A stretch of DNA of 64,000 nucleotides from Candidatus Omnitrophota bacterium (lineage in GTDB: Bacteria; Omnitrophota; Omnitrophia; Omnitrophales; Aquincolibacteriaceae). How positions within the stretch are numbered: the stretch's first letter is position 1; each line of letters opens with the position of its first letter. The stretch covers positions 79,505 through 143,504 of the forward strand of contig PLLJ01000034.1 in NCBI GenBank assembly GCA_003140935.1, in the 5' to 3' direction. The position numbers were made by a program, and so were the translations under genes. The notes under the pieces are model-generated. The model had not been told where the DNA came from and made no database searches. It saw only the letters and a list, made by a program, of their open reading frames with translations. Positions 51,901 through 57,900 of the stretch are shown here, piece after piece.

Positions 51901-54900
51901 GCACCGTTGCCAATAAACCCACTAAAGAAACCGCCGGGACTTTCCGGAGCGCCTCAAGGCGCGCGTTCTGTTCGATCAGCACTTCCGCCTGATTCGTGTC
52001 TTCTTGCGCAACCCGATGATCGCTTGCGGGCTGGCTCATCTGCCAAATGGTGCGCCACAGGTTCCCGTGAGAATCATTGACATGAGTAATTTCATGCTTG
52101 GCCGTTTCAAGATACCGCGCCAGTTGCCACAAACCGAAGTCGAAAACAGTCTTGCCCTTATCAAGAGTCCGGGTGACCGCTGTCATCAACTTCATAGCGG
52201 CATATCCCGCCGCGGAACTCAAGTCCGTGACAGGATACGAAATAACTTTGACCGTTTTCTTCCCCTGGGAAACCGTCGGTTCACCGACACGGACCCCTTG
52301 AATGATATCTCTCAAGGAAAAGTCCCCCGCCAAAAATCCAAGATCGATCTTCCCGAGGCTTGCACGATCATATTTCAAAGCCTGTTCAATAAGGTCGGCT
52401 CTCAGGAACGCCGTCGTGCCATCCGCAAAACCAAGCTCGTTATTCTGGCCTTCTCGCCACTGCTCTGCATAGGGCGAGAACTGGACCTGACCTCCCCCGA
52501 TCCGGATCTGGACCGGCTGAACGAGAACGAGCGGCGTCTTTTCATCGCCGAGGACTTGCGCGGGCACCTTGAGGTCCCTGCGCGCGTTCGCTTTCAGAAC
52601 AAAAAAGTATTTGTCCGGCATCGCGAGCGTCGGGTAAAAATAATCCTGCGACCGGACGACTTGCCCGCCGCGCGTCGTTTGTACGGTCAGATTTTCCACG
52701 GCCGTGCCTTTAACATTGAAGGCTAACCCTTGCGCGGCGAAGAATTGCGGCAGGTCCTTATGGATCAGACGGGCGATGGCCCTCACATAATCCAATCCGT
52801 AACCTTCCGGAAGTTTCGTCCCGGAATTGATCCGTTTGGCCAGAGCCAGAAAAAAGACGCGGTGAATTTCCCCTAGTTTTTCGGGAGCGGCGCCTTGCTT
52901 CGGCATTTTTTTCCATTGTTCGATAAAAGAATTCAGCTCTCCCAAGACCGTGGCGATCGCGTTCCCTTTTGTGCCGTTCCAATCATTGAATTGCAGTGGT
53001 TCAAGCGATGCCGCATAACGGATTTGGTTCATCGCCCTCATCGCTTGGGAGGCGGCATCCGCCGGAGCGGGTTTCGCCGGAACTGCCGGTTTACGCACCT
53101 GACCCGCGAGCGTCGTCGCACCACCCAAAGCCCACAACGCTGCTCCAAGGACCCCTACCGTTCCGGTCGCTCTTAAAAACCCTCTTCGCCCCACTCCTTC
53201 GGGCGCGGGCAACCTAAGGGGCACTTCCACAGGTTCGGTCAACAATCCCATCGAAACCGGAGCCGCATCTAACGACCCTCTTTCGGTCATCAAGCGGAAG
53301 TTTTGCAGTGCCTCCAGTGTTAGGTCCGTCACATCAACGAATCTTTCCTCGGTCCTCATTTCAGACCGATCGTTGATCGTGGGCGCTTGAGGGCCGCGTG
53401 CGGTCGCGCCGCCTTCGGATTCCCAATCGCCGACTTGCCGCCTGTAGTTCCGGGCTTCGGCTGCGGCCTTTTCGACTCTCGAAGCCTTCTCCCGAACCTC
53501 GGAACGTTGAATGTCCCCCGGGTCTTCCGCCGGCGTGACATCTTCGTCCAAAGCCACAGTCGTTACGGATTTTCTTTTCTTGCTCGCATATTCCCTTAAT
53601 TTCTCGAAGACCCGCCTTCCTAATTCCAGCCTTGTCTGTTCGATCAACTGTCCACGCTCATCCCCAGGAGCTTTTTGGATTCTGCCGAGCATCGCATCCA
53701 CCTTCTCGGAATTTTCCCCCAGCCGAATCCACGAAGAGATAAGACGCATAAAACGCAAGGACTGCCCAGGGCCGAACTTCTCCTTAATAGTTCGGAAAGA
53801 ATGTTCCAAAATCGCGGTGGACCCCACCCCGCTGACCGAGGCGAAATAAACGGTTATCAAAAACAATCCGCGCTGGTCCGCCGGCAATCCGGACCAGACA
53901 ACACCTTCGTCCCTCCACATTTGAAGCGCTTGTTCCATGATCGCGACGCCACTGTGCCCGAACATGGACGTGTTGTAGACCGCCACCATGAACCGCCGCT
54001 GAAGCGCTTCATTCCCGAGGTCCGACCAGATCACCCCGTTCTTTCTCCAAAGTTCCAGAGCGGCTTCCGTCGAGACGCGGCCTTCCTCGCCCTCGATCGC
54101 CGCGTTATAGACCGCCGTCAAATATCCGATGCGGGACAGATTGCTCAGGTTCCCCCAAACCACCCCTTCCTTTTTCCATAACGCCAGAATCCCTTTCATG
54201 GCCTCCAAAGCGTCTTTCCCTTGCACCGACACTTCAAACACCGCGACCAAAAAATTCCTTCGTGCCAGTTGAAGTTCTTGGAAGGCGCCCACTCCCGCTT
54301 CATGCCACAAAGCAAGGACGTCCTTCATGGTGTCCAAACTTTCCTGCCCCCGGATAGCCACGGAAGAAACGGCCGTTAAAAACTGCGATTGAAGCGCCTC
54401 ACTGTCCAGCGTCGGCCAAGCGACCCCTTCGCTCTTCCATAGAGCCATGATATTCTTCATCAGCACCAAACCGGCCATACCTCGCATCGCCGCGCAATAG
54501 ACCAACGTCAAGTATTGATTCTTCAATTCCATGCTCAGCGTTTCCCAGTTGATCCCTTCCTCCCGCAAAAACGCAGTGACCTGCGGCAAGACCGCCGCAG
54601 CGTCTTTCCCCCTCATGGCAATGTTGTAGACCATTCTCATGAATTGTTGCCCGAGCTTCGGATCGAGACCAGCCCAAGTGACCCCCTGGCCCCTCCAAAA
54701 TTCCAAGATCTCGCCCATCGCTTCGGGCCCTTCTGGATCACCCACGGCGACACGATATACGGCAACCAGAAATTGTTTTTGCATGACCTCGTCCAGCCCG
54801 TTCCAAGCAACACCTTCTTTTTTCCATAAAGCTAAAACTGCCTTCATCTTCTTCAGACTGGTCTTACCTTTCATAGCGACGTTGTAGACCGCCACAAGAT

Positions 54901-57900
54901 ACTGGTTCTTCAAAGCCTCATAATTTTCGCGGTTCTTCCCTTCTCCAAGCGACGCTTCTTGGATTCCCCGCCATGTCGCCCCGATCTCCGCCCACATCCC
55001 CATAACTTCCTTCATGGCTTGAACACCCTCCTTGCCAGGCCAAGCCGCCTCATAGACGGCCACGAGGAATTGCCGCTTCGAGGAATCGCTCAATCCTCTC
55101 CACAAAACCCCATCCGCGCGCCACAACTCCAGGACTTCCAGCATCGCTTTCACTGCGGGCTTACCTCGCATAGCCACCACATAAACGGCGATCATGTATT
55201 GCTGTTTCAGCACGTTACTCATTTCCGTCCAAACAACCCCCTCCTTTTTCCAAGCTTTAAAGATCTCCTCCATCGCATCGGTCGCGGCACTGCCTGTCAT
55301 CGCGACCTTGTAGACCGCCGTAAAAAACTGCTTCTGTAATTCCGGCGTTAATTCCGAAAAAACAACTCCCTCCTGCTTCCAAAGTTTTAAGACAGCTTCC
55401 ATGGATTCCAGGGCTTTCGGTCCCCGGATGGACACGGCATAGACCGCGATTAAATATTGTTTTTTCAGTTCATCGGTCATGCCGGCCCAGGTAACACCTT
55501 CATCTTTCCAAAGTTCCATAGCCTGCTTCAGGAGCGTAAACCCCCGGCTCCCGGTCGCCGCCACGCTAAAGACAGCCGTCAAATATTGCTGCTTCACCTT
55601 GACCGATTGATGAACGATGTCCCATTCCTTATCGAGAGAGATAACGAGCTTCGCAAGATTGCTCAGAATGCCGGGAGAGACCGGCTGGCCTGCCACTTTG
55701 AGGATCCCGTCACGGATCCCTTCTTCTCCCAGGTAATCCCGGAGAAAGTTGTATCCTCTCCGGTACAGGACCAGCATATTCATAACGTTGCTGTACTCCT
55801 GCCGCAGCACCTTGTCCTTTTCCGGATAATCTTCAAAATCTCGGAGAAAAGCTGCCGCCAAAAGGTCGAATTGATCCACGATCTTTTTCGCGGCCGCCTC
55901 TTCATTTACCATATCCTGAAGCGACGCAACCAGTGCCGCATCGAAAAGGCTCCCTTCTTCCCTGAAAAGCGCCTTAATGGCTTCAAGAGACCCGTCGGTC
56001 GCGGCCACGATGTTCATCGCGTTCGTGGCTAATTGGAGGGACAACTTCTTAATTTCGGCGGAATGAAAACCCCAGGTTCCCGGACCGCGCCAGTTCATTT
56101 CATTTTCTATTTTTACCGCAAGCCGCGAAATATATTCCTGTTGGGATTTTTTGAACGGCCCGTGGCGGAAGATCATCAGCCCTTTCAAGGCTGCTTCGCC
56201 CAACTCCTCCACCCGCATTTCGGAACGGGCTTCAGAGCGCGCAGTACTATCGTCAGCGCCCTTACCCGGATCCGAAATGGTACGCAAGCGCTCGTCCAAG
56301 ACTTGAACGTACTGCTCCAGCAGAGGAATGGCTTTGATAAGATTTTCCCTTGAAATAATTGCCGTGGGCGCCCTAAATACGCGATCGAGCCACCGCCTGT
56401 AAAACGGCGTGAGACGCCTGACCACAACGGGATCAAAATCGTATCCCATGTCTTCGTATTTTTGTCGCCAGGCGGATTTGGCCAGCACATGAAACTTTTC
56501 CCGGATGAAGACGATCCCTTTCAAAGAGGCATCCTCGTCGCGCAAAGCTCGGGCCAGTTCCAACAAATTTTGATAAATCATCTTCGTAGAACGATATTTT
56601 CTTTGTTCCGGCGTTTCACCTGGTTGCCGCTTCCACAAATGCTCATTGCGATCCAAATGAAGCTCTGCGAAGGGGGGGCCACCGAACGAGCGCAAAACAA
56701 CCAGATGGGAAATTAATCCTATGGGTATTTCTCTTTCCGAAGTGACCCAACGATAAGCGGAATAGAACCCCAATCGATTAAGACCGAAGAAAATCTCCAT
56801 ACTCAAAAACAAGATCCCCGCACTCGGAACAAGGGACATTAAGCCAAGAACCCAGTGCTGATAAAGGAAGCTCAAAATGGACAGCATGACCATCGAAACT
56901 CCTATGCCTGCCGTAATAAGCGCTCGCCTGTTTCTCAAAGGATCAAGCTTTACCAGCCGCGCGCCCGTAAAGGCGCTTTGCGCCTGCTTTTCGCGGACTT
57001 CGGAATGGCCCACCTTCTCGCCTCCGTTCTGAGGCGCGAGGTCCGGAGCATGCCGGTGAATACGAACGCCGGACAGAGTCCTCCACAGATAGCGGAAGAA
57101 AAAATAAGCGAACATGAACCGGGGGATCGATTTTTGCGAAAGCAACGCCTGCCTAAAAACAAGACGTGCCTTTAATAAATATTCACGGGTTGTTTTCGGG
57201 GCTAACCGAAAAAGGGCTCCGTTTGCCGCTGTCAGTGAGGCCGCGGAACGCGGCGTCACCCAGGCAGAGAGCTTCTGAAATTCCTCCGGATGCCGCTCCT
57301 TCGCCAGAGCCCACAACATGTTCGGTTGAACACTGTAGTCCGAGAAATAATCCATCCAATCGTCGAGGTACTGACAAAACAAAGCTGCTTGGTGCAACAA
57401 GGATTCTCTCGTTCGAAACTGGCCCGGAGCGAACTTCCGAAACACTTTCGTTGCGATCTGCATCAGGGGGCGAAAATCGTCTTTTTCGGTAAAGATATTG
57501 GTCATGTCCCGAAGGGGAGGGAAAAGCCCCCCCCTTCGTTCAAGGAGATACGAATGCAGGAACACGCGCGAATTTTGCCAGAAGGCATCCCGCATGGCCT
57601 GCCGTTCCGTCTCATGAAGCGGCGTTAAGGACAGGGCTTGCTCAAAACGCTCAGGAAACGAGTCAATGATCTGAATTCCGTCCCTAGGGTCCGACGGGAA
57701 TACCGCGGAAATCGGCGCTGCACGCAGTTCAGCTTCCGCAACCCTGGATCGGAGGCGCAGGTCGATCTTGTGTGTGCGATCCACCTCCGCAAGCATCTCC
57801 GTGATCTCGTCAACGGAAAGACGCTTCCCGAAGCGATCCAACAAGTCGTCCCCCACCATCATGTACTGAGACCATAGCCAGAAAAGGCGGTCAAAACCTT

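Follow-up and report, generated by a model that had tools for sequence, protein, structure and literature searches.

Evidence for a new family of predicted alpha-solenoid repeats in a giant Omnitrophota protein

The window analysed here, a stretch of 64,000 nucleotides from a Candidatus Omnitrophota contig, encodes a giant protein in which a unit of about 43 residues is repeated in tandem. The locus raises the question whether this repeat belongs to any described family and what an array of such units could do inside the protein. The giant is built from several modules, with domains of the HAD hydrolase, methyltransferase, HEAT, epimerase and response-regulator types, and has a few transmembrane segments. 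Its Pfam HEAT_2 match was found at aa 1245-1336, outside the repeat array, which occupies residues 2797-3414 (window 53744..55597, minus strand). The position given in the initial annotation, 53800-55610, was essentially right, with the last degenerate unit clipped and the first unit overshot by four codons. The features of the locus are the following:

45932..63985, minus strand: giant open reading frame, 6,017 aa, host of the 43-residue repeat
53507..56224, minus strand: repeat-containing module, aa 2588-3493, with R-S-E-x-R motifs at both borders
56213..56239, minus strand: RSEARSEMR border motif of the repeat module
55598..55957, minus strand: N-terminal flank of the array, aa 2677-2796
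55727..55774, minus strand: N-flank motif LVLYRRGYNFLRDYLG, conserved in the N-flanks of homologues
53873..55597, minus strand: thirteen canonical units of 43-44 aa, aa 2797-3371
55469-55597, minus strand: unit 1, first residue 2797
55340-55468, minus strand: unit 2, first residue 2840
55211-55339, minus strand: unit 3, first residue 2883
55082-55210, minus strand: unit 4, first residue 2926
54914-55081, minus strand: unit 5, first residue 2969, the boundary including the insertion SLGEGKNRENYEA
54914..54952, minus strand: 13-residue insertion SLGEGKNRENYEA after unit 5, splitting the array into 5 + 8 units
54785-54913, minus strand: unit 6, first residue 3025
54656-54784, minus strand: unit 7, first residue 3068
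54527-54655, minus strand: unit 8, first residue 3111
54395-54526, minus strand: unit 9, first residue 3154
54266-54394, minus strand: unit 10, first residue 3198
54137-54265, minus strand: unit 11, first residue 3241
54005-54136, minus strand: unit 12, first residue 3284
53873-54004, minus strand: unit 13, first residue 3328
53744..53872, minus strand: degenerate unit 14, beginning with RGLFLITVYFASVSG at residue 3372, helix 1 kept and the W-K-x-E-G-V motif lost
53717..53758, minus strand: C-terminal cap motif LRFMRLISSWIRLG; the arrays of homologues end with an equivalent L-R-x-x-[WY]
53492..53506, minus strand: RSEVR border motif of the repeat module

Thirteen of the 14 units counted earlier are canonical, whereas the fourteenth is a degenerate capping unit and not a full copy. 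The proposed period of about 43 residues was confirmed (43 in most units, 44 in three), and the array contains all the units given as examples as well as the consensus Q-[YF]-L-x-A-V-Y-x-V-A...G...M...L-x-L-W-[KR]-x-E-G-V-x-W-x-x-L. The columns V9 and G34 are invariant, and G16 and W30 are conserved to at least 90%. The nucleotide identity between the unit copies was 53% on average (pairwise 41-64%) compared with an amino-acid identity of 40%, the same codon was used at only 38% of identical residues, and no 129-bp array was reported by Tandem Repeats Finder in the repeat region. The DNA copies are thus diverged, as had been noted, and at 53% identity an ancient duplication rather than recent slippage is indicated. 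On the basis of the amino-acid and nucleotide identities and the shared codons, the repeat is real and is kept under purifying selection. The selection for diversity that had been suggested as an alternative holds only for one or two sites of each unit (11 and 15); the whole unit is under purifying selection.

To find out whether the repeat exists elsewhere, as the initial annotation had asked, an exhaustive profile search of 1.84 billion (1.84e9) representative proteins was conducted with a profile of the window's units only. It resulted in 14 matches, about nine of which are genuine relatives; the repeat is extremely rare in public data. The whole-library E-values of unrelated proteins sharing the repeat were 6e-98, 1.5e-33, 1.5e-31 and 5e-31, and the retrieval of the same repeat in unrelated proteins at such strong values places it beyond chance. 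The family consists of the window giant, P0001-P0006, P0009, P0012 and P0013. Its members carry the helix-1 signature [LI]-K-K-Q-[YWFA]-[LM]-I-A-V-Y-x-V-A-M-x-G-K as tandem copies spaced 39-44 residues apart (43-44 in the window). They also have an alignable N-flank and C-cap in common, which indicates that the whole module is the evolutionary unit. P0007, P0010 and P0011 were rejected as unrelated simple repeats, and P0008 and P0014 as ankyrin arrays scoring about 2 bits per repeat.

The hosts of the repeat are uncultured Omnitrophota-like and Planctomycetales-labelled bacteria. The relatives include a giant Omnitrophota protein of 7,381 aa that carries two arrays. P0002, which is encoded at locus L005 of an Omnitrophota MAG, resembles the window giant in the repeat module only. 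Most of the other relatives are stand-alone proteins of smaller size, mostly with a hydrophobic N-terminus of signal-like or anchor-like character. The localisation is ambiguous, since most stand-alone members look exported or anchored, while the other domains of the window giant are cytoplasmic-type enzymes. No member has an annotated ligand, partner or function. P0001 was the only relative returned by a single-sequence homologue search, which did not retrieve the window protein itself. With the family alignment and one narrow peptide pattern, only the P0002 and P0001 loci were detected in the genome contigs and a second copy of the P0002 gene in the metagenome contigs; the family alignment and two narrow peptide patterns gave no match in viral contigs.

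The claim that the repeat is not of the TPR, HEAT, Sel1, PPR or ankyrin type was borne out by hmmscan against Pfam-A, in which neither the 618-aa array nor single units matched any of these families at E<=10. The period also differs from those of TPR (34), ankyrin (33) and TALE (33-35) repeats. The possibility that the repeat is a divergent but ordinary member of the TPR, HEAT/ARM, Sel1 or ankyrin family draws on the weak retrieval of the ankyrin arrays P0008 (E 3.8e-9, none of its stretches being significant by itself) and P0014 (E 6.6e-4) by the unit profile, and on the summed partial matches of P0009 to TPR_20 (30.7 bits) and of P0003 to HEAT_GCN1_C (22 bits); we consider it very improbable. 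An origin from degenerate tandem copies of the C-terminal helix-turn-helix of DnaD/DnaB_2 (DDBH2), with a retained DNA-remodelling or DNA-binding activity, appears similarly far-fetched, even though the whole array scored 27.7 bits with Pfam DnaB_2 PF07261 (sequence cutoff 22, E 2.3e-6) and 24.6 bits with NCBIfam DnaD_dom TIGR01446 (cutoff 24.95, profile positions 41-65 of 73). The L-x-L-W-K-K-E-G-V of the window also resembles the DnaD motif I-L-x-x-W-x-x-x-G, and the likeness comprises helix 2 and W-K-K-E-G-V at DnaB_2 profile positions 37-64 of 74. However, single units gained only 12-14 bits with DnaB_2, always at these same positions, and the array scores stem from a repeated partial match of 27 residues summed over 13 non-independent copies. 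About one third of the domain (positions 37-65) was matched instead of roughly 73 residues above a curated cutoff, and no single stretch was significant. The match is not reciprocal, as the profile search of PDB sequences returned no DnaD or DnaB, and the other family members do not show it; they lack W-K-x-E-G and match Focal_AT, TPR_20 and HEAT_GCN1_C instead. Since members match quite different families, summed partial matches are unreliable for this repeat. Homology of P0001 to Focal_AT (Pfam, 47 bits) was likewise rejected, because the score is a sum of repeated partial matches at positions 78-126 of 133, in the final third of the profile. This part of the FAK FAT domain forms one continuous helix where the repeat has a Gly turn.

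The homologues gave only inconsistent partial matches with Pfam, as did the search of PHROGs, there with families without an assigned function. QYLIAVY-type motif strings were absent from the literature searched, and RSEVR-type strings gave nothing relevant. In agreement with the proposal of a new family, neither the searches of Pfam, NCBIfam, PHROGs and PDB sequences nor Foldseek against PDB and BFVD gave a counterpart. These results support a repeat family that is new but belongs to a known structural class, the alpha-solenoid.

The two-helix solenoid suggested by the initial annotation agrees with the structure prediction for four units, in which tandem helix-turn-helix units are predicted to stack into a continuous superhelix. 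Helix 1 of the unit would be formed by LKKQ[YF]L-x-AVY-x-VA-x-x, followed by a turn at Gly16. Helix 2 would comprise ...M..VL.LW, after which E-G-V-x-W and a 3-10 turn would connect to the following unit. The four-unit model was built on a four-row pseudo-alignment of non-overlapping four-unit blocks, three of the five models scored only 58-75, and an 8-unit model was poor (pLDDT 58).

The variability between the units is concentrated at position 11, and usually also at 15, of helix 1. Position 11 (AVY-x-VA) had the highest entropy of all columns in five of the six arrays and the second highest in the remaining one, and position 15 ranked 1-5 in five arrays and 14 of 35 in P0002. The residues differed in 90% of the unit pairs at position 11 and in 73% at position 15, compared with only 7-19% at positions 10, 12 and 13, the codons of which showed synonymous differences in 21-51% of the pairs. 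In units 1-4 of the P0001 gene, four different codons are used at codon 11 and likewise at codon 15, whereas the rest of the 36-codon unit shows, for the most part, the same codon throughout or synonymous changes only; the remaining residue changes are mostly in unit 3. By a helical-wheel calculation, position 11 is turned 166 degrees away from the hydrophobic face and belongs to the stripe Q4-7-11-14/15. The exposed helix-1 positions 2, 3 and 4 are well conserved, with Gln4 present in 39 of the 47 units. Variability at an exposed site can reflect a mere lack of constraint; a hypervariable residue in a conserved helix suggests modular binding.

The explanation that we prefer, with a probability of roughly 0.55, is a maintained array of hairpin repeats that forms a portable module and presents a modular recognition surface to an extended or periodic ligand. 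The array, framed by the conserved N-flank and C-cap, would be the core of the module. Its occurrence as a stand-alone protein in other uncultured bacteria and twice in the unrelated 7,381-aa giant points to a portable module that giant multi-enzyme proteins have acquired by fusion. On helix 1, the stripe facing the solvent would combine the conserved Gln4, semi-conserved hydrophobic residues at 7 and 14, and the hypervariable position 11, less consistently also 15, so that successive units would line up different side chains on a uniform scaffold. This row of side chains may bind the ligand in such a way that about one unit serves each of its subunits; a peptide or a segment of a protein is the most likely partner, a glycan or nucleic acid a possible one. 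In the giant, the role of the module would be docking or organisation and not catalysis.

The array could also be passive, a rigid rod or spacer of the alpha-solenoid type by which neighbouring enzyme modules are kept apart or oriented, positions 11 and 15 being simply the least constrained surface sites, and we regard this as a tentative reading with a real but limited chance of being right. It is compatible with the predicted solenoid fold, with the nearly neutral overall charge of the window array (pI 6.4) and with the neighbourhoods of P0001, P0003, P0004 and P0009, in which no common genes, conserved neighbours or annotated partners were found. HEAT/TPR 'scaffolding' is moreover described as common in giant Omnitrophota proteins (bioRxiv 10.64898/2026.06.07.730766). 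Nevertheless, the conserved exposed positions 2, 3 and 4 argue against a pure spacer, which would not need Gln4, and so do the top or second rank of position 11 in all six independent arrays, even among near-identical units, and the stand-alone versions, which have no adjoining modules to space. A nucleic-acid-binding superhelix of the TALE/BurrH or mTERF type, with one unit per nucleotide and positions 11 and 15 as repeat-variable residues, is improbable. The indirect indicators of DNA or RNA binding were weak or negative here, the pI of the arrays ranging from 5.1 to 9.8 across the members. A stricter form of the modular recognition surface would be a 'programmable' array in which residue 11, with 15 as a possible second determinant, reads one polymer subunit per unit beside a backbone-contacting Gln4. 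Such a one-repeat-one-residue code, with a logic like that of TALE, PUF and PPR on an unrelated 43-residue scaffold, is speculative and rather unlikely. The linear polymer read could be a peptide, a glycan or a nucleic acid, and the hosts would be Omnitrophota-type giants and exported proteins.

If the modular recognition surface is the right reading, a helical-repeat family outside the current domain libraries has been found, and about 600 residues of 'dark matter' are explained in one giant and two arrays in another. Giant multi-enzyme proteins of uncultured bacteria would then recruit a portable module that is otherwise stand-alone and often exported-looking, which bears on how giant proteins are assembled. 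Signatures of the kind seen in the sharply localised variability at position 11, usually also at 15, opened the way to the TALE, PUF and PPR recognition codes, and the variability gives a testable prediction of where specificity resides. Engineered binders could also be built on the repeat as a new scaffold. Should the variability turn out to be neutral, the finding is simply one more alpha-solenoid family.

Among the known systems, TALE and TALE-like proteins (AvrBs3/PthXo1; BurrH/Bat of Burkholderia rhizoxinica) share with this repeat the residues that vary in otherwise conserved units, here at position 11 and mostly at 15. Their variable residues are adjacent and lie in the inter-helix loop, whereas here they are found on a face of helix 1 at a distance of four residues, which makes the resemblance an analogy and not membership. 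TALE units, checked against PDB TALEs, were aligned to the unit profile by hhalign with a probability of 1% over 12 columns, Pfam TAL_effector did not match in the array and Foldseek returned no TALE match; the TALE period of 33-35 residues compares with 43 here. The hosts of TALEs are plant pathogens, unlike the uncultured bacteria described above. The mTERF proteins (human MTERF1, MTERF3, MTERF4) have units of about 30 residues; no Pfam mTERF match was found in the array, which in comparison is not basic overall. Designed helical repeats (DHR10; the peptide-binding RPB_PLP1_R6) are artificial and have no evolutionary relation to this repeat, their similarity scores being non-significant. Long multi-enzyme Omnitrophota proteins have been described (West-Roberts et al. 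2023, bioRxiv 10.1101/2023.11.21.568195; bioRxiv 10.64898/2026.06.07.730766), and keyword look-ups in both preprints showed that their repeats are catalogued by Pfam family (HEAT, TPR, NHL, WD, TSP3, dockerin). The same look-ups gave no description of the present repeat. The window giant resembles the described proteins in its methyltransferase, HAD, HEAT and response-regulator domains and in having a few transmembrane segments, and the second giant with this repeat comes from an Omnitrophota MAG.

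The repeat region is housed by a single minus-strand ORF encoding a multi-module protein of 6,017 residues, referred to here as the giant. Motif searching and alignment resolved 13 canonical units; the last of the 14 proposed in the initial annotation is present but degenerate.

Window 45932..63985, minus strand: ORF of the giant
Window 53744..55597, minus strand: repeat array
Giant residues 2797, 2840, 2883, 2926, 2969, 3025, 3068, 3111, 3154, 3198, 3241, 3284, 3328, minus strand: starts of the canonical units
Giant residue 3372: start of degenerate unit 14

The period was 43 residues in most units and 44 in three, and a 13-residue insertion follows unit 5. 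Given this span, the limits first assigned to the array were right to within a few codons, and every unit and consensus originally quoted was found in it. Between window units, pairwise identity was 40% for the protein and 53% for the nucleotide sequences, only 38% of identical residues were encoded by the same codon, and no 129-bp repeat was reported by Tandem Repeats Finder. These values indicate, as had been proposed, old and diverged copies, kept by protein-level selection. The array is real and is maintained by selection.

Neither the array nor single units matched TPR, HEAT, Sel1, PPR, ankyrin, TAL_effector or mTERF in Pfam at E<=10, in agreement with the earlier exclusion of the first five. 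The sole notable Pfam match was DnaB_2 (PF07261), whose summed score was 27.7 bits for the array, compared with 12-14 bits for a single unit, every match covering profile positions 37-64 of 74. The same pattern was obtained with NCBIfam DnaD_dom (24.6 bits vs the cutoff of 24.95). Membership in DnaB_2/DnaD was rejected because the match covers only a third of the domain, the score adds up 13 copies that are not independent, the reciprocal search of PDB sequences by profile returned no DnaD, and relatives of the repeat give summed matches to quite different families (P0001, Focal_AT, 47 bits; P0009, TPR_20; P0003, HEAT_GCN1_C). The direct profile-profile comparison of the repeat unit with TALE units, whose sequence was verified against PDB TALE entries, resulted in a probability of 1%. 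PDB sequence searches and PHROGs added nothing on the repeat's family, and literature searches with the motif strings gave no match. The family is described in none of the libraries tested (Pfam, NCBIfam, PDB sequences, PHROGs), which supports its initial reading as new; the repeat is a new family in a well-known structural class.

The occurrence of the repeat elsewhere, raised in the initial annotation, was determined by an exhaustive search of 1.84 billion representative proteins with a profile of the 13 window units. Only 14 matches were obtained at E<=1e-3, nine of them genuine relatives on inspection; of the other five, two were ankyrin arrays and three were unrelated simple repeats. All nine carry the tandem helix-1 signature [LI]-K-K-Q-[YWFA]-[LM]-I-A-V-Y-x-V-A-M-x-G-K with periods of 39-44.

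Relatives of the repeat found by the profile search (protein, length, units)
P0001, 567 aa: 5 units
P0002, 7,381 aa: two arrays, of about six and about five units
P0003, 524 aa: 5 units
P0004, 1,150 aa: 7 units, C-terminal to a shikimate-dehydrogenase-like domain
P0005, P0006 and P0013, 403, 593 and 711 aa: fewer, more diverged units
P0009, 1,455 aa: at least 13 units of 39 residues
P0012, 99 aa: 2 units

P0002 is encoded by a 'Candidatus Omnitrophota' MAG, with a second copy of its gene in a JGI metagenome, and P0001 by a MAG labelled uncultured Planctomycetales. The repeat was not found in the viral contigs searched. Neither the window's giant nor a close orthologue was returned by word-indexed or exhaustive representative searches, in contrast to LigA of the same contig, which is present on 10 contigs. 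The repeat family is very rare.

Only the repeat module is common to the window's giant and P0002. The segment just before unit 1 (L-x-L-[YF]-R-x-x-Y-x-x-L-x-x-Y-L-G ...) can be aligned throughout the family, and the arrays end alike, with a degenerate last unit and then an L-R-x-x-[WY] segment; N-flank, array and C-cap thus evolve together as one unit, and the array forms a portable module. Most of the smaller members (P0003, P0005, P0006, P0009, P0013) have hydrophobic signal-like or anchor-like N-termini, as read by eye. A common C-terminal tail of about 60 residues, starting G-G-I-D-[LFM], was observed in three stand-alone members, P0001 (aa 506-567), P0004 (aa 1092-1150) and P0009 (aa 1405-1455). 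It has no Pfam match, does not occur in the window's giant or in P0002, and may be a sorting or anchoring signal.

Variability within the units is sharply focused on position 11 and, for most arrays, on position 15 as well. Column 11 (x of A-V-Y-x-V-A) ranked 1, 1, 1, 1, 1 and 2 of 35 columns in six arrays; column 15 (x of A-M-x-G) ranked 1-5 in five of the six and 14th in P0002. On average over these six arrays, 90% and 73% of unit pairs differed at positions 11 and 15, and 7%, 19% and 16% at positions 10, 12 and 13, respectively, where 21-51% of pairs had synonymous codon differences. In the five units of P0001, codon 11 is AAC, AAG, GTA, GCA and CAA and codon 15 is AAG, GAA, AAT, AAA and GAA; most remaining codons of its 36-codon unit are identical or only synonymously different, and residue changes outside the two positions are mostly in unit 3. 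The (11, 15) pairs of the 13 window units are S/T, A/R, K/T, V/R, E/P, N/K, R/G, N/R, C/R, S/R, E/Q, N/E and N/F. By helical-wheel calculation, the angle between position 11 and the hydrophobic face of helix 1 is 166 degrees, and the position shares a stripe with Gln4 (retained in 39 of 47 units), 7 (I/T/V), 14 (mostly M) and 15.

Outside the array, the giant contains HAD, methyltransferase, HEAT, epimerase and response-regulator domains together with a few hydrophobic stretches, a make-up like that of long multi-enzyme proteins previously reported in Omnitrophota. Fourteen copies of the pentapeptide R-S-E-[VAMIL]-R and three close variants are present in the giant, vs 0.05 expected from composition; they mark the borders of recognisable domains and divide the protein into modules of about 140-900 aa.

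Giant aa 436, 753, 1026, 1698, 1961, 2327, 2583/2587, 3494, 3540, 4126, 4614, 5010, 5151, 5416, 5429, 5716, minus strand: R-S-E-x-R motifs
Giant aa ~3578-3610 (~window 53156..53254, minus strand): twin-arginine-like internal signal GVGRRGFLRATGTVGVLGAALWALGGATTLAG
Giant aa ~1840-1900 (~window 58286..58468, minus strand): HRGGVIHGDVVERINALIPRLEHFYVDQGTVRFIDFGEG, resembling the HGD...N and DFG catalytic motifs of a protein-kinase-like fold; no Pfam match
Window 1..45000, minus strand: PrmA, two PBPs (PBP2-like), EPSP-synthase family, SHMT, PurF, PurL, LigA, MnmA, GT4 glycosyltransferase

Since the codons of the motif vary synonymously, the constraint is on the peptide, which looks like a recurring linker or a polyprotein processing site. 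The twin-arginine-like signal starts the module after the second RSEMR motif, and it looks as if an exported, once independent protein was fused into the ORF there. In P0002 (final 6,010 aa at L005, its locus, 23..18055), 'DRSERE' adjoins that protein's own recurring linker. Its enzyme modules (histidine-kinase ATPase, HD, HAD, glycosyltransferase, GNAT, MutS-like ATPase, nucleotidyltransferase, HPr-like) are separated by about ten near-verbatim copies of a hydrophobic, probably membrane-inserted segment of about 85 residues, GGSTLAGNIFLGVFAYLYLSAQKQAIVDFLYEKSRMKKWY...ATRYLAKSLLMGPGLTI. Beyond the giant, the window, part of a 288-kb metagenome scaffold, is ordinary bacterial chromosome. All large ORFs examined in 1..45000 are on the minus strand and every 2-kb bin has a negative GC skew, which fits a single replichore with a strong strand bias.

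The input for AlphaFold2 was an in-register alignment with four rows: three four-unit blocks of the array that do not overlap, and the homologue P0001. Units 6-9 were modelled confidently (pLDDT 89.9, pTM 0.84), in only two of five models. In each unit, two helices of about 14 and about 16 residues are joined by the Gly16 turn, and a short 3-10 turn at V-x-W connects to the following unit. Eight units with the cap gave a poor model (pLDDT 58) with the same secondary structure. The models support local stacking of the two-helix units suspected at the outset, and the array is predicted to be an alpha-solenoid with good local confidence.

The stripes of Gln4, 7, 11 and 14/15 of successive units would together make up a surface for ligand binding, where side chains that differ from unit to unit would be lined up on a uniform scaffold and face an extended partner. 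This partner is most likely a protein or peptide, as basic character is not shared by all arrays (pI 5.1-9.8) and many family members seem to be exported; a nucleic acid or glycan would be less probable. The main rival explanation is that the array is a passive spacer whose surface variation is neutral. The function of the repeat is a proposed one, and the localised hypervariability lifts it above 'just another solenoid'. Overall, both the observation and the interpretation of the initial annotation are supported.

Foldseek gave no match to PDB or viral models (E >= 1.1, TM <= 0.35). A tabulated structural comparison, its measure unlabelled, gave 7.7 for BurrH (TALE-like), 7.6 for mitoribosomal mS93, 7.5 for a TALE-deaminase fusion (9lcx), 7.4 for MTERF1, 6.9 for the designed helical repeat DHR10 and 6.7 for AvrBs3. 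As modelled, the fold is a generic two-helix solenoid without a close solved relative, and its predicted local geometry may resemble that of TALE and mTERF proteins.
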